24,000 nucleotides of DNA, taken from assembly GCF_000011105.1 (NCBI RefSeq), contig NC_000961.1, positions 487,940-511,939 of the forward strand, in the 5' to 3' direction. This document shows, piece after piece, positions 4,162 to 19,456 of this stretch. The number at the start of each line of letters is the position of its first letter. Position 1 is the first letter of the stretch. The translations under genes and the position numbers were made by a program. The notes below the pieces were generated by a model. The model saw only the letters and a program-made list of their open reading frames with translations. It was not told the origin of the DNA and ran no database searches. Source of the stretch: Pyrococcus horikoshii OT3. Lineage in GTDB: Archaea; Methanobacteriota_B; Thermococci; Thermococcales; Thermococcaceae.

Positions 4162-4171
4162 GGTGGTGTGA

Positions 4172-4939
4172 ATGAGGAGGGGTGCTATTGGTATTGGAAC
4201 GCTCATCGTGTTCATCGCAATGGTATTGGTAGCTGCGGTAGCTGCTGGAGTGTTAATTACAACCAGTGGCTACCTTCAGCAGAAGGCCATGGCCACTGGT
4301 AGGCAGACCACCCAGGAAGTAGCAAGCGGAATCAGAGTGAGTGGCATTTATGGCTATACTCCTTCAAACCCTCCAGGAAGTGGAAAGATAACGAGGCTAG
4401 TAGTCTACGTTACTCCAAACGCTGGTAGCGGAGGTATTGATCTCGCCCATGTTAGAGTTGTATTAAGTGACGGTAAAAGAATGGCAGTGTATAGGTACTA
4501 TGATTCAGACAAAGACCAAGGACTCCAAGCAGGCTATTTCCTATATGCAGGGGATATTGAGAACATAGTACCCTACTTTAACGATACAGATGTACTCTCA
4601 GTAAGCAATTATACAACGGTAACCAGTGTCGCTGATGTCTGGAAGAATCTATATTATGCAATGACACAAGACAATAAGATGCTCTTTGGAATTGTGGTCG
4701 TTGCAGATGACGATGATAGCCTAAGCAATACAGCTCATCCCACGCTTGGGTTTGGAGACAAAGCCGCCCTAATCTTGTGGACGATACCATTCGATGACGA
4801 CAATGATTACAGCAATGGCTATGGAATACCACCTAGCACAAAAGTCGTTGGGAAGGTAATCCCAGAGAATGGTGCGGGTGGAGTTATAGACTTCACGACT
4901 CCATCGACTTACACGGATAACCTAATGGAGCTCCAGTGA
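4172..4939 (+). CDS. flaB5: Archaellin, paralogue 5 (second sequence subfamily)
   Basis: The N-terminus is MRRG|[35 protein letters not shown]. The C-terminus is [29 protein letters not shown] lies upstream. Confidence 0.95.
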
Positions 4940-4949
4940 GGTGATAGCG

Positions 4950-5432
4950 ATGGCCCTTGACTTCCTAACTTCATTATTCAAGAAGAAGGAGAAGGAGGAG
5001 GAAAGGAAGGAAGAAACCTTCGAGGAGGTAACGGTTGAAGAACTTGAGAGCAGGGTTGAAGAGAAGCAGCAGAACGAGCAGATAGAGCAGATAATGGAGA
5101 GGCTCAACGACATCGAGAACGATCTCCCGAGGGTTAAGATAAGCATCGACAACATAAAGAAGCAGATTCAAGAGATCAGGGAGGAGATAGAGAGGCTCGA
5201 CAAGACGATAAAGGACATAATGATGCTCTACGAAGTAGTCTCTCAGGAGATAAACCCATTCAAGGAGCAACTAAGCCAGGAGTCATCGCTAAGTAGTGAA
5301 ATCCAAGAGCTCAAGAAGCAGATAGAAGAGCTGAAGATGGAGCTCGCCCAAGTTAAGAACGACATCAAGGTGCTCGCTGGCTACGGTGTCGACTTAGATT
5401 CGATCCTCTACGAGGTGCTGGCGGAGGTGTGA
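4950..5432 (+). CDS. flaC: Archaellum accessory protein FlaC (coiled-coil)
   Basis: The ORF track starts at GTG 4941, which lies inside the SD GAGGTGA (4938-4944). ATG 4950 follows 5 nt later. The product is a heptad-rich E/K/I coiled coil of about 160 aa. It lies between the archaellins and flaD, as in Thermococcales and Methanococcales fla operons. Confidence 0.7.
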   Translation: MALDFLTSLFKKKEKEEERKEETFEEVTVEELESRVEEKQQNEQIEQIMERLNDIENDLPRVKISIDNIKKQIQEIREEIERLDKTIKDIMMLYEVVSQEINPFKEQLSQESSLSSEIQELKKQIEELKMELAQVKNDIKVLAGYGVDLDSILYEVLAEV

Positions 5433-5435
5433 CCC

Positions 5436-6635
5436 ATGGAGATGGGCTATGTAACTGATGCAGAGATAAATGCAAAGCTTGCAGAGCTTAAGGGAAAGGT
5501 TCCCAGCGTCGTCATAAACGAGCTAAGGGAAAAGCTAATGGCCAAGAAGGATACGCTAACGCCAAAGCAACTTGACGAGATAATAAAGAGGGTTCTTGAT
5601 GCTTATGGAAGTCAAGCGGCTAAGTACGAGCAGATAAGTAAGAGGGTTGATGAGCTAGGTAAGAAGTTGGGTGAGTTAAGCTCACAGTTATCGAGGCTCG
5701 TCGAGGCCCTCGAGGAGAAGAAGTTCGCAGTTCATGAGAAGAAGGCCGAGAGCATAGCGGAAAAAGCAGCTGAAGTCACCGAGAAGGTTGAGAGGATTGA
5801 GGAGTTACTTGAGGAGAAGCCCAAGGAAGAGAAGTCAGAGCTGGCTAAGAAGGTTGAGGAGATACACAAGAAGGTTGAGGAGTTAGAGGAAAAGCTAACC
5901 GGTGAAAAGTTGGAGGAGACTAAGAAGAAGGTTGAGGAGTTGGAGGAGAAGATTGAGAAGGGAGAAGAGGTTACCGCTGAGGAAGTTGGTGAATTAGCTG
6001 AAAAGGTTGAGGAGTTGGAAGCTGAAGCTGCTAAGCCCGAAGAAGAGGTTGTTGTTGAAGTTCCCGAAGAGGAGGAAAAGGTTGAGGTTGTTGAGGAGGA
6101 AGTTCCTCCTGAAGAGGAAGAAGTTGTAACCCCTGAAGTTGAGGTTGTTGAGGAGGAAAAGAAGGAGGAAGTGGAAGAGGAAAAGGAGAAGGAGGAGGTG
6201 GGTAAAATGTCCGAAAAGATGAAGATCCCAGAGGACATCGCGAGCATCCTATTCGAGGAAGAGCCAAAGAAGGCTAGGCTCGAGGAAATACCTGAGGACG
6301 TGGTGTCCATAATGATAGCCCTCAAGTGGCTTGGCTTCCTAATCGACAGGGTGGGAATACAGAACCTAGAGAAAGTCCTTGAGTTCTACTACGAGATCGG
6401 CTGGATAAGCGAAAAGGTTCTCAACCAGCTCCTCAGATTTGCCAGGGGAACTAGGCCTCACCACAGGGATCCCGAATGGAAGCCTGCTGAGAAGTTAACC
6501 GTCCAAGATCACCTGATAAGCCTCCTCTTCATAGAGAGGCTTAGGGGCCTAAGGATCACGAGGGATGTACTAGATAAGCTTGAAAGGGAGGTGAAGATGC
6601 TAGAGAAGACCCTCGATGAGTTCTATGGAGTCTAG
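5436..6635 (+). CDS. flaD: Archaellum protein FlaD (FlaD/E family) with a long acidic low-complexity insert
   Basis: The C-terminal region (IMIALKWLGFLIDRVGIQNLEKVLEFYYEIGWISEKVLNQLLRFARG) is typical of the FlaD/E domain. The middle third is an E/K/V-rich repeat. Confidence 0.85.
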   Translation: MEMGYVTDAEINAKLAELKGKVPSVVINELREKLMAKKDTLTPKQLDEIIKRVLDAYGSQAAKYEQISKRVDELGKKLGELSSQLSRLVEALEEKKFAVHEKKAESIAEKAAEVTEKVERIEELLEEKPKEEKSELAKKVEEIHKKVEELEEKLTGEKLEETKKKVEELEEKIEKGEEVTAEEVGELAEKVEELEAEAAKPEEEVVVEVPEEEEKVEVVEEEVPPEEEEVVTPEVEVVEEEKKEEVEEEKEKEEVGKMSEKMKIPEDIASILFEEEPKKARLEEIPEDVVSIMIALKWLGFLIDRVGIQNLEKVLEFYYEIGWISEKVLNQLLRFARGTRPHHRDPEWKPAEKLTVQDHLISLLFIERLRGLRITRDVLDKLEREVKMLEKTLDEFYGV

Positions 6636-6651
6636 CCTGGAGGGGTAACCA

Positions 6652-7119
6652 TTGGGGTTCAGCGTTTCAGCGAGTGCAGCGATAGTCTTTATTTCTTTTT
6701 TAATAGGATTGGGGACTCTCTACATAGCATGGGAGAATAGTTACCTTGAGGTTCAAGCCGCGAGGGAGTTTTGGTATTCGCTCCGCACTTCCCAGTTACA
6801 CTTCGATATTGGTAACGTTTCGATATCTTACGTTAATTCGACTCACGTTGATGTCGCGTTCACCTATCTAGGTCAAACCCTTGAGGGTAAAATTGATGTG
6901 CTTCACAACGGTACCTATGTGTCTTCCGTCGATGTCACCTATCTAATCCCCGGCGAGAGCTATAGTATAACTATCCCCGGGGGAGATACGAGCGGGAGCT
7001 TAAATCACCTAACCCTCGCTTTCAATAACGGTTGCGTGGCGATCATAGCTTACCATTACAATGGAACCGCATACGTTGTTGACTCAACCTCGATTCAATG
7101 CCCGATGGAGGTGAGCTGA
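6652..7119 (+). CDS. flaF: Archaellum protein FlaF
   Basis: TTG start at 6652 with GGAGGGG upstream. The N-terminus is an archaellin-like hydrophobic segment (MGFSVSASAAIVFISFLIGLGTLYIAW), followed by a beta-rich domain. Operon position also fits. Confidence 0.8.
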   Translation: MGFSVSASAAIVFISFLIGLGTLYIAWENSYLEVQAAREFWYSLRTSQLHFDIGNVSISYVNSTHVDVAFTYLGQTLEGKIDVLHNGTYVSSVDVTYLIPGESYSITIPGGDTSGSLNHLTLAFNNGCVAIIAYHYNGTAYVVDSTSIQCPMEVS

Positions 7120-7592
7120 TGACCGCTGGAGGTCCAGCAAGCGAGCTAATAATGTTCATCGTTGCAGTGATCATAGCGGGTAGCGTAGCTGGGGCCTTAG
7201 CTTACGTCACCAACGATCTAGCGAACAGCATGAAGGATAGGGGAACAATGCTAGCTGATAGCTTGAGGGTTGACTTCGCGATAATTAACGATCCCAGCAA
7301 GATTCCGGTTAGTGGGACTGGCCCTTACACATACACCTTCTACGTCAAGAACATAGGGAAGGATTCAATAGCTTTCAGCTCTAACTCAATCCAAGTGTTC
7401 ATAGATGGTAACATAATCCCTCCCGCGAATTTAACGTTCACCGATGTTAACGGGAACTCGATAAGCTCCTTAGATCCTGGGGAGGTAGGGGCGATCCAAG
7501 TGACTCTTGGGAATGCTTTGGATCCAGGGTACCACAGGATACAAGTGGTTCTAGAGAACGGGAAGGAGAGGGTTTTGATCTTTAAGATCTGA
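7119..7592 (+). CDS. flaG: Archaellum protein FlaG
   Basis: The ORF track starts at 7098. I prefer ATG 7119, which overlaps the flaF stop (TGATG), with GGAGGTGA 4 nt upstream. The N-terminus has a hydrophobic helix (ELIMFIVAVIIAGSVAGALAY). Confidence 0.8.
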   Translation: MTAGGPASELIMFIVAVIIAGSVAGALAYVTNDLANSMKDRGTMLADSLRVDFAIINDPSKIPVSGTGPYTYTFYVKNIGKDSIAFSSNSIQVFIDGNIIPPANLTFTDVNGNSISSLDPGEVGAIQVTLGNALDPGYHRIQVVLENGKERVLIFKI

Positions 7593-7606
7593 AGGAGGGA
7601 TCCAGC

Positions 7607-8305
7607 ATGGTTGAAGAGCTACTAAAGATAGAGCTGAAGGGAGATGAGCTCCACAGGCGTCTAGGCGGTGGCATTCCAGCGGGTACGATAATGCTCATTG
7701 AGGGGGATAGGGGGACAGGGAAGTCAATAATCTCTCAAAGATTACTCTACGGCTTCCTTATGAATGGATATACCTCCTCTTACATTTCGAGCCAATACAC
7801 AACCGTTGAGTACATCAAGCAGATGATGTCGATAAGCTACGATGTTATCCCTTTCCTGATAAGAAAAAAGCTCGTCTTCGTCTCCCTCTACCCTTTACTT
7901 AGCGGTGTTAGCGAGGAGAGGAAGTTCCTAAGTAGATTACTCGGTGAGCCGAGGCTTTGGGATCAAGATGTTATCATCATCGATTCGTTTTCATCCGTGC
8001 TCTCGCGAGAGCAGGATGTCGGTGCGGTGAGAAATTTCCTGATGTACATTAAGAGGCTCTCGAGCCTTGGGAAGGTTATAATATTAACCGCTAACCCCGA
8101 GGAGCTCTCGAGGGATGTGATGTTCCTCCTTGAGGAAGCGTCAACCTTGCTCATGAGGCTCAACGTTAGGGTCTTCGGTGGGGACTTAAAGAACTCAGCG
8201 ACTATAGTGAAGTACAACAATGCTAAGGGGGTGTTTCAGAAGATAATACCGTTTAGGGTTGAACCTAGGGTTGGATTGGTAGTAGAAATAGCGGCGGTGG
8301 TGTGA
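7607..8305 (+). CDS. flaH: Archaellum KaiC/RecA-like ATP-binding protein FlaH
   Basis: Walker A is GDRGTGKS. The protein is 232 aa and lies directly upstream of flaI. Confidence 0.9.
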   Translation: MVEELLKIELKGDELHRRLGGGIPAGTIMLIEGDRGTGKSIISQRLLYGFLMNGYTSSYISSQYTTVEYIKQMMSISYDVIPFLIRKKLVFVSLYPLLSGVSEERKFLSRLLGEPRLWDQDVIIIDSFSSVLSREQDVGAVRNFLMYIKRLSSLGKVIILTANPEELSRDVMFLLEEASTLLMRLNVRVFGGDLKNSATIVKYNNAKGVFQKIIPFRVEPRVGLVVEIAAVV

Positions 8306-8306
8306 T

Positions 8307-9920
8307 ATGGCAGAGGCCGTTTCAGGAACGCTTGAGGAGGCAATGCGCAGGAATCCTCACCTTAGGAAGTACGTTGAGGAGTTTAGGCGTAAGTATGGTA
8401 AAGTCCCCGAGTTTCACGTTCAGCTAACCACCGAGATGAGGGATATCCCATATCCCAACATAATCTATCCCGTTGGTGATCCGATATTCATACACATCTA
8501 TGGTGACCCCCAAACGGAAACCCAGTACATAGTGATAGAGCCGAGGATAGAGAACAGGGAGGAAGAGGAGAAGTACAAGTTGATAAAGGATAGGATCCTT
8601 GAGCTAGCACCTACTAGGGATATTCCAGAGGAGCAGGAGGAATTCGAGAGGTTCCTTGATTCCCTGTTTGAGGAAGCAGTTCTCTCCCTGGTGAAGGGGA
8701 GGAAGGGATTAAAGATAACCAAGGAGGAGATGGAGAAGTTCAGGTATCTTGTGAAGAGGGATATAATTGGAATAGGTCCCCTGGAACCAATAGCGAGAGA
8801 TCCCTACCTTGAGGATATCCACATAATAGGTGCGAACTACGTTTCTGTTGTCCACAAGATATTCCAGCATCTACCGACGAACATAAAGTGGAAAGATAAC
8901 ATAGAGCTTGCAGATTATTTGAAGAACCTATCCGAGAGGATAGGAAGGCCCGTCAGCGATAGGAACCCAATAGTTGATGGAACCCTTCCTGATGGTTCTC
9001 GTATAAACATAATCTACTCCCCAGATATCTCGCTCAAGGGTCCTAGTGCAACGATAAGAAAGTTTGCAGCAACCCCGCTGAGCATAACCCAGCTTATAGC
9101 CTGGGGTACGATGAGTGCAGAGATAGCCGCTTACCTCTGGTTGGCCATAGAGTATGGTATGAGCATATTCGTCTGCGGTGAGACTGCCTCGGGTAAAACA
9201 ACTACTTTGAACGCTATAATTCCCTTCATAAAGCCGGGATCAAAGGTCTATACAGCTGAAGATACTCCTGAGGTTCAGGTCCCCCATCCAACTTGGCAGA
9301 GGCTCGTTACCAGAGAGAGGGGTCCCGAGGAGAGTAGGGTTACGCTGTTCGACCTCCTGAAAGCTGCTCTAAGATCTAGGCCAAACTACATCATAGTCGG
9401 TGAGATTAGAGGTGCTGAGGGTAACATAGCCTTCCAGGCCATGCAGACGGGACACCCTGTTATGAGTACCTTCCACGCTGGTGACGTTAAGAAGATGATC
9501 CAGCGTTTCACGGGCTCACCTATAAACGTTCCTATAACCTTCATAGATAACCTTAACATCGCACTGTTCCAGCAAGCGGTTTACGTTAAGGGTAAGTTCC
9601 TGAGAAGGGTTATCACAGTAGTCGAGATAGAAGGTTACTACGAGGAACTCGGAGGAGTTGCAACCAGGAACGTCTTCGAGTGGGATCCTGTAAACGACAG
9701 GCACATATTCAGGGGTATGAACAACTCCTACATACTCGAGAATAAGATAGCCGAGATAGCTGGGTACGAGGATCCCAAGGCGATATACGATGAGCTCTTC
9801 CTCAGGGCTAGGATCCTTCAGAGGATGGTTGAGCTCAAGATATTCAATTACTGGGATGTGTACAGGGAGATTAAGGCCTTCTACCAGAGGGGTATCGAGG
9901 GATTGAGCTTCAGGATCTGA
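8307..9920 (+). CDS. flaI: Archaellum motor ATPase FlaI (type II/IV secretion ATPase superfamily)
   Basis: Walker A is GETASGKTT. Other motifs are YIIVGEIRGAEG and the His-box region STFHAG. The protein is 537 aa. Confidence 0.95.
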   Translation: MAEAVSGTLEEAMRRNPHLRKYVEEFRRKYGKVPEFHVQLTTEMRDIPYPNIIYPVGDPIFIHIYGDPQTETQYIVIEPRIENREEEEKYKLIKDRILELAPTRDIPEEQEEFERFLDSLFEEAVLSLVKGRKGLKITKEEMEKFRYLVKRDIIGIGPLEPIARDPYLEDIHIIGANYVSVVHKIFQHLPTNIKWKDNIELADYLKNLSERIGRPVSDRNPIVDGTLPDGSRINIIYSPDISLKGPSATIRKFAATPLSITQLIAWGTMSAEIAAYLWLAIEYGMSIFVCGETASGKTTTLNAIIPFIKPGSKVYTAEDTPEVQVPHPTWQRLVTRERGPEESRVTLFDLLKAALRSRPNYIIVGEIRGAEGNIAFQAMQTGHPVMSTFHAGDVKKMIQRFTGSPINVPITFIDNLNIALFQQAVYVKGKFLRRVITVVEIEGYYEELGGVATRNVFEWDPVNDRHIFRGMNNSYILENKIAEIAGYEDPKAIYDELFLRARILQRMVELKIFNYWDVYREIKAFYQRGIEGLSFRI

Positions 9921-9930
9921 GGTGATTCCA

Positions 9931-11643
9931 ATGCCTAAAGAAGAGAAGATCAGCATCTTCGTAAAGGCAGACCTAAATCCAAAGGAGTACATGAAGAAGA
10001 TCCTCATCCCAGGGTTAGCTGGCTCGGGAATTCTTTTCCTTGTAATGGGTTTTTTCACTAGGTTGATAACCCTTCCCAGGGGCCTAGTCTTCTTCATGTA
10101 CCTCGTCCCAGCTATAATAGCTGTGTACGTTGCTGCCTACCCTTACCTAGCTGCTGATTCGAAGAGGCTTTCCATAAACTCCAAGCTACCTTACTTCATA
10201 ACTTACTTCGCTGTCCTCTCGACGAGTGAGATAGGGAGAACGGATATACTCAGGGTTCTTGCAAAGGATCCCAAGCTTGGGGCCATAGCCAATGAGATGA
10301 AGAAGGTTTACATAATCGTTGACAAGCTCCATAGATCCCTACCAGAAGCGTTCAGGTTCCTAGCGAAGAGAACCCCCAGTAAAGTTTTTGCTGACTTCCT
10401 GGATAGACTAGCTTATTCCTTGGATAGCGGTGTCGAGCTAAAGGATTACCTGTTCCAGGAGCAGCAAACCGTTATGGATGATTATCAGACCTTCTACGAG
10501 GGGGCCCTCTATGATTTGGATATATTCAAGGAGATTTACGAGTCGGTTATAATCTCGATAGTCTTCGCAGGAGCCTTCATGATCATAGGGCCCATATTGA
10601 CGGGCCAGAACATAGGTAGGTTAGCCCTTTATTTAGCTTTCCTAATACTCGCGGCCGAGATCGGTTCACTACTCGTGATAAAGTATAGGATGCCCGAGGA
10701 TCCTATATGGGCCGAGAAGAGGGTTGAGACTCCTAGGTATAGGAGGATAAAGAGGGCTGCAATAATCTCGGGCATGCTAGTTCCAATAGTCTTCCTCCTC
10801 TACTTCGCTCTAATAAGGCCGAGGTTTCACCTTCCCACTCCATTCGTGATAGCCCTATCCCTAACTCCTTTAGCTTACTTAGGTAACGTCGTTAGGAAGG
10901 AGGAGGGAATAATATTCAGGAAGGATGAGAACTTCCCTGCTTTCATAAGGAGCTTAGCTTCATCGCTAGCTGCAAGTGGTGCCTCGCTTTTGCTGGTACT
11001 TAAATACCTCAGTGCCCACGACTTCGGAATGCTCACGGAGGATATAAGGGCCCTTTACAGGAGGCTCGCCGTTAGGGTTGATTCAGCCAGGGCCTGGGAT
11101 TTCTTCATAGCTGAGACTGGTAGCTGGTTGATAGGTATATTCTCAGAGATATTCAGGGAGAGCCTTAGGCTAGGGGCCGAGCCGGATTACGTTGGTAAGG
11201 TTATAAGCAGGAACTTCGAGAGGCTCGTAAGGCTTAGGAGGAAGAGGCTCCAGAGCGTCTCAAACTTCATAGGAATAATCCTGGGATTGACGGGGGCCTT
11301 TGCATTCTCCCTAGCAGCATCCTTCCAGGTAGCCGTCACGATAAATTCGATATTCAGCAAGTTCCAAGTTCCAACGGAGTACATAGGTAACGTTATCCAC
11401 GTTATACCCCCGAGCGGGCTTAAGCTCCTCGATCTATCCCTGATAATAATCATGATAGTCCACTCACTCCTCTCGGCCTTGGCAATTAAAGTAGCGGATG
11501 GAGGTAACCTTCTCGCTTCGCTCTACTACTTCGTGATACTACTCTGGGTCTTCGCCATAGGAATGTACATTGGTCAGGTGCTGATGTCCAAGTTCATGAG
11601 CGTTGGAGGGGGAAGCTTGATACTCTTCCTACTGGGGGTGTGA
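9931..11643 (+). CDS. flaJ: Archaellum polytopic membrane platform protein FlaJ
   Basis: The ORF-track GTG 9922 lies inside the SD GAGGTGA (9919-9925). ATG 9931 follows 5 nt later. The protein has many hydrophobic segments separated by two soluble GspF/TadC-like regions. Confidence 0.9.
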   Translation: MPKEEKISIFVKADLNPKEYMKKILIPGLAGSGILFLVMGFFTRLITLPRGLVFFMYLVPAIIAVYVAAYPYLAADSKRLSINSKLPYFITYFAVLSTSEIGRTDILRVLAKDPKLGAIANEMKKVYIIVDKLHRSLPEAFRFLAKRTPSKVFADFLDRLAYSLDSGVELKDYLFQEQQTVMDDYQTFYEGALYDLDIFKEIYESVIISIVFAGAFMIIGPILTGQNIGRLALYLAFLILAAEIGSLLVIKYRMPEDPIWAEKRVETPRYRRIKRAAIISGMLVPIVFLLYFALIRPRFHLPTPFVIALSLTPLAYLGNVVRKEEGIIFRKDENFPAFIRSLASSLAASGASLLLVLKYLSAHDFGMLTEDIRALYRRLAVRVDSARAWDFFIAETGSWLIGIFSEIFRESLRLGAEPDYVGKVISRNFERLVRLRRKRLQSVSNFIGIILGLTGAFAFSLAASFQVAVTINSIFSKFQVPTEYIGNVIHVIPPSGLKLLDLSLIIIMIVHSLLSALAIKVADGGNLLASLYYFVILLWVFAIGMYIGQVLMSKFMSVGGGSLILFLLGV

Positions 11644-11646
11644 AGG

Positions 11647-13572
11647 GTGAGGAAGCTAATCCTAGTGCTAATACTCCTCATGCTCCCAGGGGTGTCGGCA
11701 TCTACCTTCGTTGGCTGGGCTAACCTAGGGGAGAGCGTTAGCTATGGGGATAACGCTATAGTGGTGAGGGATGTAGGAGTTGATGGAGAGGTCTTAATAG
11801 CACTCTCAACCCCTAGCGGTGTTAGCTATCTCTCCCTAAAGCCCGGGGAAGAGGAGAAGGTTGGCGATGTTAAGGTTAAGGTTGAGAAGGTTTTCCTGGG
11901 AGAGAACCCAATGGTTTACCTCAACGTCACCTTCCCGCCGGCGTTGATTAACCAGAGCATTAAGGTTGGAAGGTACGTCATAAGGGTTAAGGATGTTACC
12001 GTTGATTCCTTCGAGGTAACCGTTAGCAACGGAACCGGTGAGAAAGTTTACAAGGATTCCTTTGAGGTTGGGGGTTATAAAGTAGTTATAACTCCAAGAC
12101 CCGAAATATTCTCTGGAGAGCTTAAGCTTCTAGATAATGTAACCTATGGGGATTATAAGATAACCCTCTCCGGCTTAAACATGACTGTCGTTAACAATAA
12201 ATCCTCGAGCATCCTTGACGTTAAGTTCGAGGGTAAAGATTACTGGGTGGAGGAGGGTAAGTACGCTTACGTTGGCCCCTTCATAGTCAAGTACAACGGC
12301 TTCAGGTGTGAGATGAAGGGTAACCTCTGCGATCCGGTTATCTCCCTAGCCGTTTTATTGAGGGGTGTAAATGTTTCAATAGCCTACGATCCCTCAAAGG
12401 TCTTCTGGCTGTACGAGGGTAAGGGGTTCACGGTGGGTCCGCTCATAGTTAAGCTCGAGGGGCTTGCGGATGGAGTTTCCTACATAGTTATATCTAACAA
12501 CTGTGGCGATGAGCTGTACTCGGGAACCTTGAGGGCTAACCCAACTGTAGTAGATTCCATAGAGTACGATGGGATAAAGCTCGGCTTGCTTGAAACGGAT
12601 GAGGATAAAAACGGTAAGAAGGGGCTCTTCATAGCATTCTACAACGAGAGCGAGAAGCCGAGGTATCTAGCCTATCTTAACGTAACTGTAAAGGCCCCTG
12701 AGAGGGTTACCCTTCTATCCCCGTTCAAGGTTAGGGTTAGCGTGATGAACGAGGGGAATAGCAGAGTCATGGGGATGCTCGCTAAGTTCAATCCCGGTGA
12801 TGGGGTGAAGGTAATCGGTAGGGATTCGGTTTACATAAGCTCCCTGGATCCGGGAAAAAGTGTGGAGTTGAGCTTCACCCTTTTACCCACCAAGGAGGGT
12901 AAGGTGAACGTCGGTAAAGTTACAGTTGAGGGTCCAGTCCCATACCCCCTAGCTTGCGGTGGATTGTCGATGCTTAAGTTCTCCTCGAATTCTCCAGTGG
13001 TTGAGGTTGAACCTCTAAACATTGGCGTAAACATTTCTTATCCAGTTTCTGTATCTCTGGGGGTACCCTTTGAGGTCAACGTAACTTTAAGCCATAACAT
13101 CGAGGGGAACCTAACGCTAAATCTACCCCCAGGGATCGGTTTACTATCCGAGGGTAGGGTTTCAGCGGGTAGCGTTGTGCTCCCCGCTAGGAATGCTTCA
13201 ATAAAGCTAGTCGCAGTCACCCCAGGAAACTACACGGTTCCGGTAACGTTAGCATCCCACGGGGTAAAGCTCTACAACTCGACTATAAGCTTCGAGGTTC
13301 AGGGTGAGAATGAAGCTCCAGCAGTAGCAGTTACTACCATTACAAAGGTAATAACGAAGACAGAGGAAAAGGTGAGTGAAAAGACTATAACAGTTTCAAA
13401 GAACGAGACGATAACTAAAACGATAACAATGACGAAAACGATGGTAAAAACATCGGAGATAACAAAAACTGTAGTTGGGAAGGGAAGGGAGCTCTTAATG
13501 TTCATCCTAGGTGTCATCCTCGGGATTGGGATAATAATACTAGTTGCCTGGATTAAGGCCCGCTCTTCCTGA
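11647..13572 (+). CDS. Secreted, C-terminally membrane-anchored surface (S-layer-domain/CARDB-like) glycoprotein candidate, coupled to flaJ
   Basis: GTG start 3 nt after the flaJ stop, with GGGGGTG upstream. The signal peptide is MRKLILVLILLMLPGVSA|ST. The body is beta-rich with many N-x-S/T sequons. A Thr/Lys-rich stalk (ITKVITKTEEKV...TKTMVKTSEITKT) follows. The protein ends in a TM helix plus a basic tail (WIKARSS). Confidence 0.7.
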   Translation: MRKLILVLILLMLPGVSASTFVGWANLGESVSYGDNAIVVRDVGVDGEVLIALSTPSGVSYLSLKPGEEEKVGDVKVKVEKVFLGENPMVYLNVTFPPALINQSIKVGRYVIRVKDVTVDSFEVTVSNGTGEKVYKDSFEVGGYKVVITPRPEIFSGELKLLDNVTYGDYKITLSGLNMTVVNNKSSSILDVKFEGKDYWVEEGKYAYVGPFIVKYNGFRCEMKGNLCDPVISLAVLLRGVNVSIAYDPSKVFWLYEGKGFTVGPLIVKLEGLADGVSYIVISNNCGDELYSGTLRANPTVVDSIEYDGIKLGLLETDEDKNGKKGLFIAFYNESEKPRYLAYLNVTVKAPERVTLLSPFKVRVSVMNEGNSRVMGMLAKFNPGDGVKVIGRDSVYISSLDPGKSVELSFTLLPTKEGKVNVGKVTVEGPVPYPLACGGLSMLKFSSNSPVVEVEPLNIGVNISYPVSVSLGVPFEVNVTLSHNIEGNLTLNLPPGIGLLSEGRVSAGSVVLPARNASIKLVAVTPGNYTVPVTLASHGVKLYNSTISFEVQGENEAPAVAVTTITKVITKTEEKVSEKTITVSKNETITKTITMTKTMVKTSEITKTVVGKGRELLMFILGVILGIGIIILVAWIKARSS

Positions 13573-14482
13573 GCTCCCAATATTCGTAGAGGACATTACC
13601 GTCTATTACTCCATATATATCTATCCCATCGGTCTCGTAGTGTATTATTGGACTTCCAACGATGCTTGACACCTTCTTTAAGCTCTTCATATCCTCAACT
13701 ATAACCCTCTGCCCTATTCCAGTTGGCCTACCCTCTATCGCCTTCCACTTCTTCTTCCTGGGTTCCCATGTCACTGGGGTGAGGATCCCGAATATCAGCG
13801 TTAGCACCGGGAACAAGATTCTAGCCCTAGAAACTGGCATTCCCAGGAATTCAAGGTTTTCATTTATGGTCTTAACTTTGTTATTTACCTTCTTTTCTTC
13901 GGTGTTTTCTATATAAGTTAAACCGCTTGCTGCATCGTTAACCACTGGCATCTCCTGGGTGAACGTTCCGTTTCCTCTCTTGACCCTTGCTATCACGGTT
14001 AGCTCATAGCTTAGCCTCGGCAAGTTGAGGGCCTTGCTTATTTCAGCTTCCCTCCCATTTATCTTGGTTAGGTTAACCTTGAAGTCTTGCATGAACCTTC
14101 CGTTGGTTAAGTTACCCGTGTACCTGAAGGTCGTCTCGTTAAGCAGGTAGATCTTCTCCTTCCCCTTGGTTACGTAATATGAGGTTATCCCTTCTAGTGT
14201 GTAGTTACCCTCTTCCTTGGGAATTATCCTATACTTATATTCCCCTAGTATGTAGTCGGTGACCTTTGTCGGGTAATATTCCAGCGATGCGTAGCTACCG
14301 TAGATCGTCGAGTTCGTGAAGTGAGCCGTGTGCGTTAGTACACCTTCTTCAACCACGCTTTCAACTAGCACCCTGCGCTCGAACGATGCGGGCTTCATGT
14401 ATGAAGCTATAGACAAAGTCAGGAAAATCAAAAATAGGCCGATGAAAGCGTATTGCATTCTTTTATCCTTAATCCTCAACAT
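13553..14482 (-). CDS. Bitopic/two-TM membrane protein, last gene of the SipW/TasA-like operon
   Basis: ATG 14482 has AGGAGG 5 nt upstream and overlaps the upstream gene's stop by 7 nt (ATGTTGA). The N-terminal TM is YAFIGLFLIFLTLSIASY. It is followed by a beta-rich domain of about 200 aa with sequons, then a second TM (ILFPVLTLIFGILTPVTW). A basic stretch (RKKKWK) and a C-terminal domain of about 70 aa follow. Confidence 0.7.
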   Translation of the reverse strand: MLRIKDKRMQYAFIGLFLIFLTLSIASYMKPASFERRVLVESVVEEGVLTHTAHFTNSTIYGSYASLEYYPTKVTDYILGEYKYRIIPKEEGNYTLEGITSYYVTKGKEKIYLLNETTFRYTGNLTNGRFMQDFKVNLTKINGREAEISKALNLPRLSYELTVIARVKRGNGTFTQEMPVVNDAASGLTYIENTEEKKVNNKVKTINENLEFLGMPVSRARILFPVLTLIFGILTPVTWEPRKKKWKAIEGRPTGIGQRVIVEDMKSLKKVSSIVGSPIIHYETDGIDIYGVIDGNVLYEYWELRKSGP

Positions 14483-14862
14483 CTTCTCCTCCTACATTTA
14501 ACATTTAATTTAGCCCCTCCCCCATCCCAGGAAGCTTTGATCGTATAGTTCCCTGGGAAGACGTAGATCTTCTTCGAGTATCCTGGATCTATCCTTCCAA
14601 TGTTAACCTCGCAGGTGTGACCGCAGAAGCTTCTTCTTACTAAAGTGGCATATATTGGGTAGTCAAGGTTATTCTTTATCGTTATCACGTTTCCTGGGCA
14701 GCATCTTATGAACTTGCACTGAACGTCTATGAAGGGGTCATCACCGTACCCAACTATTATCTGCCTCTCCATGCTAGTTTCCCTGAACGTTGATGAGCTT
14801 CCAACCTTCACCATAAGGAGGGCCAATGAAATTAGCAATATTCCAATAACCTTTCTTCTCAT
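14476..14862 (-). CDS. Small Cys-rich secreted protein sharing the N-terminal motif of the putative fibre subunits
   Basis: I prefer ATG 14862, which forms an ATGA overlap with the peptidase stop; the ORF track uses TTG 14868. The signal peptide is MRRKVIGILLISLALLMVKVGSSS|TF. The mature part has 7 Cys in about 100 residues and ends CRRRRC. Confidence 0.65.
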   Translation of the reverse strand: MRRKVIGILLISLALLMVKVGSSSTFRETSMERQIIVGYGDDPFIDVQCKFIRCCPGNVITIKNNLDYPIYATLVRRSFCGHTCEVNIGRIDPGYSKKIYVFPGNYTIKASWDGGGAKLNVKCRRRRC

Positions 14863-15851
14863 TTCCAAAATCTCCCTAAAGATATGTACTCAGGTTCCCC
14901 GAGGAATGGCTTTATCATTGCGAGGGCCAGGAAGACCAGCAACCCTTCGATGATTAGGGGTAAGTAGGGGTTTATCGAGTATGCTCTCTCAATGGTTCCC
15001 GTTGGAAGGAGTGGGTAGTAAGAGTAAACGTTAACCCTTTCAGTGTACACCCTGGTTTCCTCAGGCACGTGAATAATTCCCTTGATGACCCTTTCCTCAC
15101 CACCACCTAGCTTGAAGATCGTGTCGTTCACTATTTTCCCCTTAACTATGAAGACCATGGGTATCCTCGCGTAGTTCTTGATCGTTACGTTTTCTTCAAC
15201 GACGCTCCCAGGAAGGTACCACCCTTCCCTCTGTCCACCACCTAGTGTTGAAACGTAAGTTACGCTTATCTCTCCCCATAGGGTTGAACCGGCGAATACT
15301 ATCCCAAAGGCTAGTAGTGCTGAGAGCATTAAATAGAGCGTTCCAGTATCGATAACCTTTCCCCTTCTCCTCTTCTTCCTCTTAACCTTATTCCCGGTAC
15401 CTAGCATTATTCCTCCAATTACAACTAGGGTAATAGCAAGGTATTGGGAGTTGCTTGATCTTAAGTACATCCCTAGCTTCGGTATCTTAACTGGCTTTCC
15501 TCCCAGGGTTATCACCTTTCCAATTACCTGATCCCTCGGTACAGGTGGGTTTTTGCCGTCTTGCTGATCCGTTGCAACGTTGTTATCGCCCTTGGTTATG
15601 TAACCCTCTTCGGTTATCGCGTAAACCCTGTGAACAGTCCATCTTCCGGAAAGGTTGAACACTATTATATCCCCAACCTCTCCCTTGGAAAGGGGGTTGA
15701 TGAAGAAGACATCCCATCTGTTTATGGTAGGTACCATGCTGTCGGAGTATGCGTAGGAAACGAACACGGGTCTCCCCATCAGAAAGCCTACCACCGAAGG
15801 TACCACGATACCAACCAATAGTAGGCTAATTAAGATGTCGGAGACCCGCAT
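14859..15851 (-). CDS. Signal peptidase I, archaeal/SipW/Sec11 type (S26B), with a C-terminal extension of about 170 aa (3 extra TM segments plus a second extracytoplasmic domain)
   Basis: The N-terminal TM is followed by box B YSDSMVPT (Ser nucleophile). Box D is WTVHRVYAI (His) and box E is ITKGDNNVATDQ. TM2 follows, then a cytoplasmic KVKRKKRRRGK loop, TM3, a beta-rich domain of about 110 aa, and TM4. GGTGA lies 6 nt upstream of the ATG. Confidence 0.85.
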   Translation of the reverse strand: MRVSDILISLLLVGIVVPSVVGFLMGRPVFVSYAYSDSMVPTINRWDVFFINPLSKGEVGDIIVFNLSGRWTVHRVYAITEEGYITKGDNNVATDQQDGKNPPVPRDQVIGKVITLGGKPVKIPKLGMYLRSSNSQYLAITLVVIGGIMLGTGNKVKRKKRRRGKVIDTGTLYLMLSALLAFGIVFAGSTLWGEISVTYVSTLGGGQREGWYLPGSVVEENVTIKNYARIPMVFIVKGKIVNDTIFKLGGGEERVIKGIIHVPEETRVYTERVNVYSYYPLLPTGTIERAYSINPYLPLIIEGLLVFLALAMIKPFLGEPEYISLGRFWK

Positions 15852-15876
15852 TTTTCGTCACCCAAAAGGGGAACTA

Positions 15877-15893
15877 AAGGGGCGGAGCCCCTT
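15877..15893 (-). terminator. GC-rich 7-bp stem / 3-nt loop hairpin after the second subunit gene, followed by T-tracts (attenuator or mRNA-stabiliser candidate)
   Basis: On the - strand, AAGGGGC-TCC-GCCCCTT starts on the last base of the stop codon. TTTAGTTCCCCTTTTGGG follows, ahead of the peptidase SD. Confidence 0.45.
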
Positions 15894-16420
15894 CAGTGGC
15901 ATTCACCAGCGACTGCGCTTACGTCTATCTGGAATTGGTGTTCACCGCTGCTTAACCCGGTGTTGTTGAATATCATTCCAACTGAAACGGGCTGACCATG
16001 GTATACCGTGAATGAGATCTGGTAGTCGGGTCCCGCTATTGGGCTGTTGTAAGTTCCGGCAAAGACCTTCACGGGTGATTCAGCTTTTACAGTTACACAT
16101 ATTGGGTAATCCTGCTGGGCGTTTTCCCAAAGTTCGTTGCTGACGTTGAACATTTCCTCAAATACGTAAATGCTGTCTGTGCTAAGACCTTCTCCATATC
16201 CGGGATAGCTTGGATTGTTTGACGAGATCTCTACAGTCAATTTTCCGTTGTTCAGGTACACGTAAGGTTGTACTGGGGTTAGATCTATTAACTCTGAGTC
16301 GTCGCTCACTATGGCTACGCTCATATCTCTATTTGCTTCGAAATACCTAAAGTTGGCCCCCGCGCCAACTGCTAACATAAGCCCTGCAAGGAACAGGGCT
16401 ATTCCAAACAATTTATTCAT
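15893..16420 (-). CDS. Secreted TasA-like / DUF1102-like putative fibre subunit, paralogue B
   Basis: I prefer ATG 16420 (GGAGGT 7 nt upstream) over the ORF-track TTG 16426. The signal peptide is MNKLFGIALFLAGLMLAVGAGA|NF. The protein shares DDSELIDLTPVQPY, NNPSYPGYG and VSNELWEN with the upstream paralogue. Confidence 0.7.
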   Translation of the reverse strand: MNKLFGIALFLAGLMLAVGAGANFRYFEANRDMSVAIVSDDSELIDLTPVQPYVYLNNGKLTVEISSNNPSYPGYGEGLSTDSIYVFEEMFNVSNELWENAQQDYPICVTVKAESPVKVFAGTYNSPIAGPDYQISFTVYHGQPVSVGMIFNNTGLSSGEHQFQIDVSAVAGECH

Positions 16421-16440
16421 TTTCAATACCTCCTACTAAT

Positions 16441-17046
16441 TCAAGGCCCCTGCCCGCACTTGCCAACTAAGTCAGCTGGCTCAGTGCCGAGCCTGTAGGC
16501 CTTAATCTCTAATGTTCCAGTCCACATTTCTCCGGGGTAATCCCCGTTAGCTGATAAGTCCATTCCTATCTTTACCATGTCTTCAGGCTGCACGACAAAG
16601 CATACCCAATCCCTAGCTGAGTCGCTTGCGCTTGCCATTGTTCCGTCATATGCTGAGTATACATTTCTGTCTGCTCCGTAGAATTCTATATGTGAGTTAG
16701 TTGACTTGAGTTCAACGACTATTGGTACGTTTTCCCAAAGGTGGTTGCTTACCCCGAAAACTTCGTCAAAGTTGTATTCACTTGCTGGACTAACTCCGTT
16801 TCCGTAACCTGGATAGTTCGGGTTGTTAGCTGAGAAGTCTATAACTAGCTTTCCGGTAGTTTCATTTATGTACGAATAAGGTTGTATTGGGGTTAAGTCG
16901 ATTAGCTCACTGTCGTCCGTTACTATGTTCCAGTGGACGCTCCTACTGGCGTTGTAGTCACTAAAATTGGCCCCTACGCCGAGCACGAGGCCAAATGCGG
17001 CCAAAAGGCCAAAGACGGCAATCAAGTATCTATTCACTTTTTCCAT
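16441..17046 (-). CDS. Secreted TasA-like / DUF1102-like putative fibre subunit, paralogue A
   Basis: The signal peptide ends ...LLAAFGLVLGVGA|NFSDY. Conserved motifs are DDSELIDLTPIQPY, NNPNYPGYG and VSNHLWEN. An alternative start at GTG 17037 would give M-N-R..., parallel to M-N-K... of paralogue B. Confidence 0.7.
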   Translation of the reverse strand: MEKVNRYLIAVFGLLAAFGLVLGVGANFSDYNASRSVHWNIVTDDSELIDLTPIQPYSYINETTGKLVIDFSANNPNYPGYGNGVSPASEYNFDEVFGVSNHLWENVPIVVELKSTNSHIEFYGADRNVYSAYDGTMASASDSARDWVCFVVQPEDMVKIGMDLSANGDYPGEMWTGTLEIKAYRLGTEPADLVGKCGQGP

Positions 17047-17144: not shown

Positions 17145-17594
17145 TTACCTAGTACATATCCAATGGAAAATCGACAGTGCCAAGAGGATGAGAGAAAATA
17201 TTACACCTTCTGAGCTTGCTAATGCAAGGGAGACAAGTAGGGAAATTGATGAGAAAATTAGGTAAGCCAGGGGCCATAAATTTTTTCCCTCGTTCTTAAG
17301 TTCTATGAAGGTGTGAACTTCGGATGGTACACCCAATAGGTAGACTCTTCCTCTCTCAACATTCACGATCCCTTCCCTCTGTAACCTTGGGAGATGAGTT
17401 TGAACTAGGCTCACGTAGACGCTCTTCCTGTGCCTCCTGTCTTCATTCCCCTCGGCCTTGCATATGTATTCGACGAGCTCGCTAACCTCAGCTTCATTAT
17501 TGTGCTCTCTGAGGAATTCTATTACCTTTAATCTCCTATCATTACCAAGGATAGTAGAAGAGGGGCTCGATAGTAGCCTAATCAAATTTGCCAT
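17145..17594 (-). CDS. Membrane-tethered winged-helix transcription regulator (wHTH plus two C-terminal TM helices)
   Basis: The ORF track starts at 17627. ATG 17594 has GGTGGTGA 5 nt upstream. The wHTH region is RRLKVIEFLREH...VSELVEYI...VYVSLVQTHLPRLQREGIVNVERGRVYL. The C-terminal hydrophobic segments are LWPLAYLIFSSISLLVSLALA and VIFSLILLALSIFHWI. Confidence 0.6.
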   Translation of the reverse strand: MANLIRLLSSPSSTILGNDRRLKVIEFLREHNNEAEVSELVEYICKAEGNEDRRHRKSVYVSLVQTHLPRLQREGIVNVERGRVYLLGVPSEVHTFIELKNEGKNLWPLAYLIFSSISLLVSLALASSEGVIFSLILLALSIFHWICTR

Positions 17595-17748
17595 TTTATT
17601 CACCACCGGATTTAACGAAGTTACCATTTCCCTGTATATTAAGTTTTTGGCTTCCTCGCCTAGAAATTTTAAAGGAGGAATCTGCCTAAACGGCTTGAAT
17701 AAAACCGCAAAGCTTAAAAGGCATTAACGTTGAGTGAAAATTGGACGT

Positions 17749-17824
17749 AGCCCCGTGGTGTAGCGGCCAAGCATGCGGGACTCTGGATCCCGCGACCGGG
17801 GTTCGAATCCCCGCGGGGCTACCA
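17749..17824 (+). tRNA. tRNA-Gln (anticodon CUG), CCA encoded
   Basis: Manual fold. The acceptor stem is AGCCCCG/CGGGGCT. The anticodon stem is CGGGA/TCCCG with loop CTCTGGA. The T arm is GGGGTTCGAATCCCC. A TATA-like CTTAAAAG lies at 17713-17720, and a T-run follows the 3' end. Confidence 0.9.
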
Positions 17825-17883: not shown

Positions 17884-17971
17884 GCGGGGGTTGCCGAGCC
17901 TGGTCAAAGGCGGGGGACTCAAGATCCCCTCCCGTAGGGGTTCCGGGGTTCGAATCCCCGCCCCCGCACCA
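17884..17971 (+). tRNA. tRNA-Leu (anticodon CAA), long variable arm, CCA encoded
   Basis: The acceptor stem is GCGGGGG/CCCCCGC. The anticodon stem is GGGGA/TCCCC with loop CTCAAGA. The variable arm is CCCGTAGGGGTTC. The T arm is GGGGTTCGAATCCCC. A TATA-like ATTTTAAAG lies at 17848-17856. Confidence 0.9.
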
Positions 17972-18082: not shown

Positions 18083-19444
18083 TCAAAGCATTAGGAGGAA
18101 CCATTCCTTTGGGAGCCATATCACTCCATTCTTCTCCCTGAAATCTCCACCGTGAATGATGATTCCTCTCTCGGCTCCTATCTTTTTCATCGTCCTCTTC
18201 ACCTGTTCTTTGCCTTTCTTGCCCCACCCAACCTCAAGAACGATCCTCCCGATGGGAGTCGTCAGAATAAAGTCGGCACCACCCTTTTCAGCATCATAAG
18301 TTACCGAACCTGAGAGTTCTCTCGCTATAATGTATAAGTAAAGGGCAACCACATCCTCAAGGAGGTTCCCGAGGATCTTCTCATTAACCTCAAGGAGGCC
18401 AAAGTGGTTGAGTATCGAAGTCCTGATGACAGGTGCGAGGAACTTGTACTTTGGGGTCTTCCTGATTGCTTTTCCAAGAGATCCATAAGCTCTGACCGGG
18501 AATATAACTTCAAGGTTTTCAAAAGCTGACAGAAGCTTAGCTAGGACTGGTCTGGAAATTCCAAGACGAGACGTTAATCTGTCATAGTTAAGGGCTTCAC
18601 CAGAGGCTAGCATAAGCATTAGTAAAAAGGCCTTTTCAAGAACCTCCTGGGAGAAGCCCATCTTAGCGAGATCCCATCGGATTATCCTTTCCACTATCGA
18701 GTATGTTTCCTCAAGCGGTTCCCTGGAAGATAATGCTAAGGGGAGCGAGCCATAAAGGAGATACCTTTCAACCTCAATCGGGTCAAAGGTTAGGAATGTC
18801 TTCCTTATTTCCTCCTCAATTCCTTCGACTTCTCCCGCCAGTAGGAGTCGCTTTAGAACCTTTTTCACTTCTTCATTCACGCGAATGCCTTTCAGGAGGA
18901 GGTACTCGGTGAAAGTTAGGGGAGTAATGTGGAACCTCTTCGCCCTTCTTGCTAAATCGGTACTCAGCTTCAGTTCGATTGCAGAGGAACCCGTGGCTAC
19001 TATCATCAGGTTCCTTGCCCTGTCGTAGGCTACTTTAAGGGCTAAATCCCACTCCTCATCGTAGTGAACCTCATCCAAGAGGAAAATTGTTGGCTCTCTT
19101 AGCTCCTCAAGTCTCTCTCCTATGATATGCTCGTAGGATTCAAAAACATCCTTTAATCGGTAGCCGAGCATCTTAATCTCGTCTACCGAAGCATAAAGAA
19201 TCCTTTCACCGCTTACCTCCCCGATCAGCTTAAGGTAGAGCTGGGCCAGCATCGTGGTCTTTCCTACACCCCTAAGCCCGTACAATAGGATCACTCTATT
19301 CTCACCAGATCCAAGGAACCCTCGAATCTCTTCCATCAGCTTTACTATTAAGGGCCTTTCGGGTAGAGGTTTTCCCCCTTTGAGCGCGAACTTCTCTAGC
19401 CTCTTTCTCCCTAGGGTTAGTATTCTTCTGATATACTCCTCCAT
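18083..19444 (-). CDS. AAA-family ATPase of the archaeal COG1373 type (AAA_14 plus DUF4143-like), with a possible C-terminal PD-(D/E)xK-like module
   Basis: Walker A is GLRGVGKTT and Walker B is IFLLDEVH. The C-terminus reads GGADFILTTPIGRIVLEVGWGKKGK. The ORF-track TTG 19456 is probably not the start. ATG 19444 lies about 26 nt from the centre of an AAATTATAAT TATA box, which suggests a leaderless mRNA. Confidence 0.75.
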   Translation of the reverse strand: MEEYIRRILTLGRKRLEKFALKGGKPLPERPLIVKLMEEIRGFLGSGENRVILLYGLRGVGKTTMLAQLYLKLIGEVSGERILYASVDEIKMLGYRLKDVFESYEHIIGERLEELREPTIFLLDEVHYDEEWDLALKVAYDRARNLMIVATGSSAIELKLSTDLARRAKRFHITPLTFTEYLLLKGIRVNEEVKKVLKRLLLAGEVEGIEEEIRKTFLTFDPIEVERYLLYGSLPLALSSREPLEETYSIVERIIRWDLAKMGFSQEVLEKAFLLMLMLASGEALNYDRLTSRLGISRPVLAKLLSAFENLEVIFPVRAYGSLGKAIRKTPKYKFLAPVIRTSILNHFGLLEVNEKILGNLLEDVVALYLYIIARELSGSVTYDAEKGGADFILTTPIGRIVLEVGWGKKGKEQVKRTMKKIGAERGIIIHGGDFREKNGVIWLPKEWFLLML

Positions 19445-19456
19445 CTTATCGCCCAA

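Follow-up and report, generated by a model that had tools for sequence, protein, structure and literature searches.

Predicted Sec-exported pilin subunits of a Tafi-like fimbria in Pyrococcus horikoshii

Tat-fimbriae ("tafi") were described in Haloarcula hispanica (PMC11821415, iScience 2025), and the cryo-electron microscopy (cryo-EM) structure of the Natrinema sp. J7-2 TafE pilus (PDB 9p0a) showed strand donation between subunits, in which the donated strand B completes the sheet of the neighbor, beside the neighbor's own B' strand (PMC12337348, PNAS 2025). The former study also names a taf-like cluster in Pyrococcus horikoshii, made up of PH0561 (DUF5305, called a TafG homologue), PH0562 (small, about 130 aa), PH0563 (signal peptidase, TafD-like) and PH0564/PH0565 (DUF1102). 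Its AlphaFold heterotrimers join the PH0562, PH0564 and PH0565 proteins via donor-strand exchange, and the role of the PH0562-type protein was drawn from these models (PMC11821415). The latter study reports PSI-BLAST homologues in Thermococcales and Archaeoglobales with Sec signals (PMC12337348). Here, we analyzed a window of 24,000 nucleotides from P. horikoshii OT3 (NC_000961.1, positions 487,940 to 511,939) and two of its open reading frames (ORFs), denoted as A and B, which probably encode pilin subunits of a Tafi-like fimbria (TafA/TafE family, Pfam DUF1102), one of the A type and one of the B type, both exported through Sec. The cluster and its donor-strand interpretation were already published in 2025; the remaining novelty is modest and lies in a cysteine-pair pattern and its link to the Sec-exported branch, the explicit recognition of a third subunit with the module, the placing of the donor strand and a regulator gene. 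The analysis further confirms the homology independently, maps the donor strand and the cut more sharply and, with the cysteine pattern, offers a hypothesis for the difference between the Sec and Tat (twin-arginine) branches.

TafA and TafE are homologous to A and B over the whole mature chain, and the resemblance extends to the N-terminal module (small-x-small-Ala, Phe, ~6 residues, Arg, ~8 residues, Asp), to the beta-sandwich class and to the operon partners, namely a TafD peptidase, TafG, a membrane-bound helix-turn-helix regulator and a module-bearing tip protein. On the other hand, the Pyrococcus proteins carry a Sec signal peptide with no RR, whereas Tafi pilins use Tat; the thermophile clade has an extra residue (N/T/D/S) between Ala and Phe; and the Cys pair conserved in Pyrococcus is almost absent from haloarchaeal members. 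Pyrococcus also lacks a TafF-like anchor, and a 128-aa single-domain protein replaces the two-domain TafC. Tafi filaments have been seen experimentally, whereas the Pyrococcus system is known from genes and models. AbpA of Pyrobaculum calidifontis (7ueg) and the threads of Sulfolobus (7pnb) are likewise Sec-exported beta-sandwich pilins of hyperthermophiles with N-terminal strand donation, but they show no detectable sequence homology to A or B. The strand topology of AbpA is a BIDG/CHEF jelly-roll compared with BID/CHGEF in TafE (PMC12337348), and AbpA and thread loci lack TafD and TafG genes (PMC11821415). In the TasA/TapA/SipW system of Bacillus subtilis, a dedicated eukaryote/archaea-type signal peptidase is encoded in the operon and cuts one residue before Phe, an N-terminal donor strand drives assembly, and the minor protein TapA gives the first strand; A and B would work alike but are not members of that family. 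Chaperone-usher pilins (FimA, SafA, CfaB, Csu) have an incomplete immunoglobulin-like fold that is completed by an N-terminal extension, and Foldseek matches both of our models to them. However, the archaeon has no outer membrane, polarity and assembly site would be at the cytoplasmic membrane, and no chaperone or usher genes were found among the genes of the cluster.

A and B are arranged head to tail on the minus strand (Table 1). The mechanically called ORF of B spans 15893-16426 (177 aa) from a TTG start at 16426; the ATG at 16420, two codons further in, is the more likely start, because it has GGAGGT upstream and the publicly annotated protein is 175 aa long. This P. horikoshii DUF1102 protein and B share their whole sequence (100% identity), and therefore A and B correspond to the PH0565 and PH0564 genes. 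Both matched Pfam DUF1102 (PF06510) far above the gathering cut-off (182.9 and 181.4 bits versus 22.2), with model positions 1-141 fully covered. A reading of the DNA made without database searches, denoted below as the sequence-only reading, had proposed that the two are paralogues sharing a G-x-G-A-N-F motif and the block IV(S/T)DDSELIDLTP(V/I)QPY. The full-length alignment confirmed the paralogy (41% identity, E 2e-36), both motifs are present in both proteins, and all strings quoted there (LAVGAGANFRYFEANR, LVLGVGANFSDYNASR, the block, YPICVTV, DWVCFVV, GECH and GKCGQGP) were found in the translations. Its description of the block needs correction in three respects: the prefix (V/I)xxIV does not fit the actual sequences, VHWNIVT and MSVAIVS; the block begins 15 residues past the predicted cut rather than directly after it; and it is not the best-conserved segment, since NNPxYPGYGxGxS and YxFxExFxVSNxLWEN are conserved to an equal degree. 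Within an alignment of 97 DUF1102 sequences, mature-chain residues D18, E21, L25 and Y31 were invariant, and D19, I23, D24, Q29 and P30 were conserved in at least 90%.

A profile of this 97-sequence alignment (A1) was searched against 1.84 billion representative proteins at E ≤ 1e-3 and retrieved 511 relatives. Those outside Thermococci and Archaeoglobi were mostly haloarchaeal proteins that carry an RR motif and whose N-terminus reads GTGA-F-SSVxAxRxVxVxVxxD, and 56 of these haloarchaeal proteins were collected in a second alignment (A3). When the two were compared with hhalign, A1 matched A3 with a probability of 99.9% and an E of 1.3e-34 over 173 columns. A3 in turn matched the cryo-EM Tafi pilin 9p0a_C at E 3.9e-28, and all 56 of its members matched NCBIfam TafE. 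A direct PDB sequence search with a single protein gave noise only, and the DUF1102 profile reached 9p0a weakly, at the N-terminus only (E 0.78); therefore, the link to TafE was made through the intermediate haloarchaeal profile. This chain from DUF1102 through haloarchaeal TafE-like proteins to 9p0a supports the earlier proposal that A and B are secreted paralogous subunits of a donor-strand filament type.

The AlphaFold monomer models of mature A and B had a mean predicted local distance difference test score (pLDDT) of 83.6 and 82.3, respectively, with confident cores, and both are beta-sandwiches like the solved TafE. The top three Foldseek PDB matches of model A were AbpA (7ueg, E 8e-6), TafE (9p0a_C, E 3.1e-4, template modeling (TM) score 0.47) and Hyper2 (9bab, E 4.7e-4), all of which are archaeal strand-donation filaments, and chaperone-usher pilins came next. 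In the case of model B, self-complemented FimA (6r74, E 8e-4) and AbpA (7ueg, E 3.9e-3) were matched.

In both models, the N-terminal 17-20 mature residues were the sole part of low confidence. Residues 1-20 of model A (NFSDYNASRSVHWNIVTDDS) had a pLDDT below 50 and no secondary structure; residues 1-8 of model B were likewise below 50, a strand at residues 11-17 (MSVAIVS) reached about 60, and the remaining core was mostly at 74-95 per 10-residue block. From residue ~21 on, the 10-residue blocks of the models lay at 74-97, and the first confident strand was DLTP at residues 24-27. The N-terminus of mature A aligned with that of the solved TafE, FSSVEADRTVSVAVAGDAS, and the N-terminal stretch of A and B aligned with the TafE N-terminus FSSVEADRTVSVAVAGD. 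This stretch alternates hydrophobic (M/V, V/W, I) with polar (S/H, A/N) residues, as described for strand B of TafE, and in the extension of B the alternation of M11/V13/I15 with S12/A14 can be read from the sequence directly. Considering the low-confidence extension, the alignment with the TafE N-terminus and the alternating residues, the donor strand most likely lies within mature residues ~2-17 (..R-x-[MV]-x-[VW]-x-I-V-x). The sequence-only reading had instead assigned the donor strand to DDSELIDLTP. This was not supported, as the segment sits confidently within the subunit's own core in both models, where it would serve as a hinge and as the B' edge of the acceptor groove.

The n-regions of A and B (MEKVNRY and MNK) contain no RR, and export is therefore of the Sec type. 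The motif small-x-small-Ala, one spacer and then Phe was found in 180 of the 182 close homologues, the spacer being N in 132, T in 40, D in 6 and S in 2. Most of the 146 distant representatives also had the motif, 99 with no spacer and 17 with one, and profile alignments placed the Pyrococcus Asn as an insertion after the conserved Ala. In Haloarcula, mass spectrometry showed that mature TafA begins at Phe30, preceded by Ala, which contradicts SignalP, and TafD was needed for this processing (PMC11821415). The cryo-EM model of Natrinema TafE covers residues 28-215 (PMC12337348), and residue 28 is the Phe of GTGA↓F when numbered from the 9p0a profile match. A cut after the conserved Ala, as had been proposed from the sequence, thus agrees with both relatives. 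Because A-G-A↓ and V-G-A↓ fit the -3/-1 rule, which a cut after Asn does not, because Asn aligns as an insertion after Ala, and because the relatives are cut at Ala, we consider GA↓NF the best cleavage prediction and, by analogy, a rather likely one. Given the extra N between Ala and Phe in Pyrococcus, a cut at GAN↓F is the less likely alternative.

The genes around the pair were compared with 60 related loci of Thermococci and Archaeoglobi (numbered with L below), in which the order on one strand was regulator, A-type, B-type, (third DUF1102), peptidase, (module-bearing Cys-rich protein) and TafG-like. As this order is conserved, the duplication that gave A and B is ancient and fixed, in keeping with separate adapter and shaft roles. 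The peptidase gene comes after the DUF1102 genes in nearly all of the loci. Its product is predicted to have four hydrophobic segments, with the catalytic Ser within SDSMVPT and His-Arg within WTVHRV, and transmembrane (TM) segments 3 and 4 enclose a second extracellular domain; these features agree with the published description of TafD (PMC11821415). The protein scored 64.1 bits against the archaeal signal peptidase I model TIGR02228 (cut-off 51.85) and 32.3 bits against the SipW model (cut-off 190, E 6.7e-8). Judged by these profile scores, it is of the same enzyme class as SipW and is not a SipW equivalog. When all six frames of the window were searched with a regular expression for the N-terminal module, only A, B and the 128-aa ORF were found, and the N-terminus of the 128-aa protein matched the DUF1102 profile in hhalign with a probability of 63% and an E of 6.9e-5 over 47 columns. 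By analogy, the 128-aa protein is likely to be a TafC/TapA-like tip or nucleator that gives the first donor strand. In most related loci, too, the TafG-like gene closes the order. The DUF7344 regulator gene immediately precedes the pilin pair; it is upstream in about 40 of the 60 loci and, from its domain content, likely encodes a TafB analogue; the regulator is present here although the published description said that it was absent.

Many of the related loci differ from P. horikoshii in gene content. A third DUF1102 gene (about 150-170 aa) stands between the B-type gene and the peptidase gene in L004-L011, L014, L026, L031, L034-L039, L041, L043, L045 and L050, and P. horikoshii has no such gene. 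Proteins of this kind (P0202, P0204, P0209, P0213, P0214, P0216, P0218, P0225 and P0254) lack the cut site and the donor-strand module and keep the internal and C-terminal Cys pair and an N-terminal hydrophobic segment; they could be groove-only terminators that an uncleaved signal anchor keeps in the membrane. In L012, L016, L022, L024, L029, L034-L036, L040 and L041, the slot of the Pyrococcus 128-aa protein is taken by a protein of 290-460 aa. These proteins are mostly Cys-rich (4-16), several start with a DUF1102-type N-terminal module, and they are presumably two-domain TafC-like tips. One A-type/B-type DUF1102 pair was found on a 1.1-kb contig labelled as an Actinomycetota metagenome-assembled genome (L056), probably as a contaminant from binning and not as a sign that bacteria have the pair.

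We observed homology to the Tafi pilins, conservation of the motif and of the operon, a shared fold class and a low-confidence N-terminal extension in both models, and we propose the following mechanism, in which we take the position of cleavage and strand donation from relatives. The precursors would cross the membrane unfolded via Sec, and the four-TM TafD-like peptidase of the operon, probably aided by the DUF5305-like membrane protein, would cut after small-x-small-Ala, most likely at GA↓NF. An amphipathic beta-strand (R-x-[M/V]-x-[V/W]-x-I-V) lies within the roughly 17 residues that this cut would free. Lying outside its own stable beta-sandwich, the freed strand would enter the open groove of a neighboring subunit by donor-strand complementation, and the groove would be lined by the DDSELIDLTP hinge and the B' strand of the acceptor. 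The Cys-rich 128-aa protein would probably give the first strand as a tip or nucleator, like TafC or TapA, and one of A and B would act as the adapter and the other as the shaft. The C-terminal tail of thermophile-clade subunits is probably pinned by a disulfide that joins the near-invariant C-terminal Cys to an internal one. The existence of the filament in Pyrococcus, the separate roles of A and B and the disulfide are what we infer from the comparison. A and B would then build a second predicted surface fibre of Thermococcales, one outside the type IV class, and their cluster directly adjoins the archaellum operon. In bacteria (TasA) as in haloarchaea (Tafi), biofilms form through strand-donation fibres; therefore, the cluster is an obvious candidate for adhesion or biofilm fibres of Pyrococcus and Thermococcus, where none has been seen.

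Several observations weigh against a Tafi-like fimbria. A and B gave weak, N-terminal-only matches to NCBIfam TafA and TafE, far below the equivalog cut-offs (11.5 and 17.8 bits versus 190 for TafA; 13 bits versus 155 for TafE), and from these scores they are a distant Sec-type branch of the TafA/TafE superfamily and not equivalogs. The Foldseek TM-scores were modest (0.41-0.47). In model B, strand 11-17 packs on its own core at low confidence, which fits the published "closed form" of TafA monomers but equally a protein that does not polymerize. Our literature search found no report of a filament of this kind on Thermococcales cells and only haloarchaeal work, and a search on PH0564 returned only unrelated catalogue numbers. 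The packing of strand 11-17 on its own core and the missing reports of a filament would suit secreted or surface-attached beta-sandwich proteins, such as monomeric adhesins or S-layer accessory proteins, in which the N-terminal strand permanently completes its own fold. The top matches of model B are indeed self-complemented FimA monomers, and filament formation is predicted to be absent in some TafE homologues (PMC12337348). Against such proteins stand the homology to a solved strand-donation pilus, the score of the self-complementing strand, which is only about 60 in B and below 50 and unplaced in A, and the multi-subunit operon with its peptidase, its module-bearing tip-like protein and often a module-less DUF1102 protein, which suits an ordered polymer. 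Taken together, we regard non-polymerizing surface proteins as unlikely and retain the fimbrial subunits as the preferred interpretation.

The sequence-only reading had also noted exactly two Cys in each paralogue, in the motifs YPICVTV/GECH and DWVCFVV/GKCGQGP, and this was confirmed in the translations. Its statement that one Cys lies in a core strand stands insofar as each internal Cys is on a modelled strand, but the strands differ between the paralogues: YPICVTV of B aligns with VPIVVEL of A, and DWVCFVV of A with YQISFTV of B. Among homologues, the C-terminal Cys column was filled in 175 of 179 aligned sequences, and a Cys was found within the last 12 residues in 177 of the 182 close homologues. 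The internal Cys occupied two mutually exclusive columns, PICV in B-type (about 90 sequences) and VCF in A-type proteins (about 80). A small subgroup had neither internal column and three other internal Cys, four in total. In most homologues the Cys count was even, and in one sequence (P0086) the B-type internal Cys and the C-terminal Cys were lost together. The A-type tail is about 10 residues longer before the C-terminal Cys, which fits a Cys partner on a different strand. In contrast, 71 of the 99 distant representatives that have the motif without the spacer had no Cys, and only 5 had a C-terminal Cys. The sequence-only reading had proposed to check whether the motif and the Cys pair are family-wide. 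The C-terminal Cys was near-universal in the thermophile clade, but the Cys pair was almost absent from haloarchaeal relatives; across these alignments the pair is a clade feature of the Sec-type thermophile branch and not of the whole family. Even within the clade some loci count against a required disulfide. The three DUF1102 genes of one Archaeoglobi locus (L061, JdFR-42) encode no Cys at all, and L047, L052, L053 and L060 have two Cys, neither near the C-terminus. Therefore, the disulfide seems to be dispensable or re-invented within the clade and not essential to the family.

The simplest reading of the pair is probably an intramolecular disulfide that pins the C-terminal tail. The chaperone-usher pilins, which have a conserved intramolecular disulfide, offer a precedent, the C-terminal residues are packed confidently in both monomer models (pLDDT 82-95), and the module-less third DUF1102 proteins retain the same pair. 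The Cys could otherwise serve an inter-subunit disulfide in a covalent fibre, metal binding or modification, and the differing internal Cys of A-type and B-type proteins beside a fixed C-terminal one would suit specific A-B cross-links; set against the points above, we hold these uses to be improbable. A broader proposal concerns the Sec-exported thermophile branch: the near-invariant C-terminal Cys would bond with a partner that has shifted from strand to strand among the A-type, B-type and four-Cys subgroups, and the bond would act as a heat-stability lock, either clamping the tail beside the inserted donor strand, so that this strand could not slip out, or linking neighboring subunits covalently. 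We put this forward as speculative and rather unlikely. If true, a strand-donation fibre would be secured by disulfides in a strict anaerobe at ~98 °C, and the feature would have been lost when haloarchaea turned to Tat export of prefolded subunits. Cysteines and disulfides in these pilins are not mentioned in PMC11821415 or PMC12337348, and neither the pattern of the Cys pair nor its tie to the Sec branch has been reported so far.

The sequence-only reading had likened the N-termini to the TasA/camelysin type, which would make A and B true members of that family (Peptidase_M73) with a SipW-cognate signal peptide. The TasA cut site is TWA↓AFND, and the A-x-F after a small-x-small cut in A and B resembles it; the adjoining peptidase also matches the SipW model weakly. 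In addition, PMC12337348 describes AbpA as a structural relative of TasA and finds TafE closest to AbpA. However, the SipW score of 32 bits against 190 stands beside an archaeal signal peptidase I model that passes its cut-off, and the sequence homology points to DUF1102 and TafE. Pfam and NCBIfam gave no Peptidase_M73 or SipW-cognate signal-peptide match for A or B at E ≤ 1, and TasA was not among the top 50 Foldseek PDB matches of either model. On these two results TasA/camelysin membership was rejected, and we consider it very unlikely. Wide cannula-like tubes of the CanA/Hyper2 type, to which the match of model A to the Hyper2 tube would point, are likewise very unlikely, since the sequence homology is to TafE and not to CanA or Hyper2 and an operon with TafD and TafG is Tafi-specific (PMC11821415).

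Table 1. Features of the taf-like cluster in the window (window coordinates; all on the minus strand where a strand is given)
Feature	Coordinates	Strand	Remarks
A-type DUF1102 pilin-like subunit (PH0565 position)	16441..17046	-	ORF, 201 aa; Pfam DUF1102 E 1.3e-53; C-terminal tail RLGTEPADLVGKCGQGP
A signal peptide			Sec-type, residues 1-26; predicted cut VGA↓NF
N-terminal extension of mature A, NFSDYNASRSVHWNIVTDDS	16909..16968	-	predicted donor strand and hinge; monomer model
Internal Cys of A (DWVCFVV)	16600..16602	-	modelled strand 121-126; not homologous to internal Cys of B
C-terminal Cys of A (GKCGQGP)	16456..16458	-	tail block 161-170 pLDDT 95, then last block 82
B-type DUF1102 pilin-like subunit (PH0564 position)	15893..16420	-	175 aa; Pfam DUF1102 E 4.6e-54
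B signal peptide	16355..16420	-	predicted cut GAGA↓NF
N-terminal extension of mature B, NFRYFEANRDMSVAIVS	16304..16354	-	predicted donor strand; monomer model
Internal Cys of B (YPICVTV)	16097..16099	-	second residue of modelled strand 85-90; Cys column B-type only
C-terminal Cys of B (GECH)	15899..15901	-	last pLDDT block 90
TafD-like signal peptidase I	14859..15851	-	330 aa; TIGR02228 E 1.3e-17, above curated cut-off
Third secreted subunit (PH0562 position)	14476..14862	-	128 aa, 7 Cys; N-terminal module GSSSTFRETSMERQIIVGYGDDPFIDV encoded 14722-14802
TafG-like membrane protein	13553..14482	-	309 aa; DUF5305 weak, E 4.9e-4, below gathering score
Membrane-anchored winged-helix regulator	17145..17627	-	DUF7344 (Pfam E 8.4e-17) and C-terminal hydrophobic segments 117-160

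A hairpin (GGGGC-TCC-GCCCC) with short T runs lies at about 15865-15890 on the minus strand, after the stop codon of B and before the peptidase gene; the terminator scan did not call it as a terminator. The scan called a terminator-like site at 13439-13455 (-), about 100 nt past the TafG-like gene, where the operon would end. A complete archaellum operon at 3517-13572 (+) converges on the taf-like cluster. It comprises flagellins, FlaC, FlaD/E, FlaF/G-like, FlaH (KaiC-like), FlaI (T2SSE), FlaJ (T2SSF) and a 641-aa CARDB/BatD-like protein, whose ORF overlaps the TafG-like ORF tail to tail at 13553-13572. On the other side of the cluster, tRNA-Gln(CTG) at 17749-17824 (+) and tRNA-Leu(CAA) at 17884-17971 (+) separate the regulator gene from a 457-aa ATPase ORF at 18083-19456, an identical gene of which in L001 has AAA_14 and DUF4143 domains. 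The top strand at 5001-6000 (+) is unusually purine-rich (GC skew 0.35, AT skew 0.34), and this part coincides with the coding region of FlaC and FlaD/E.

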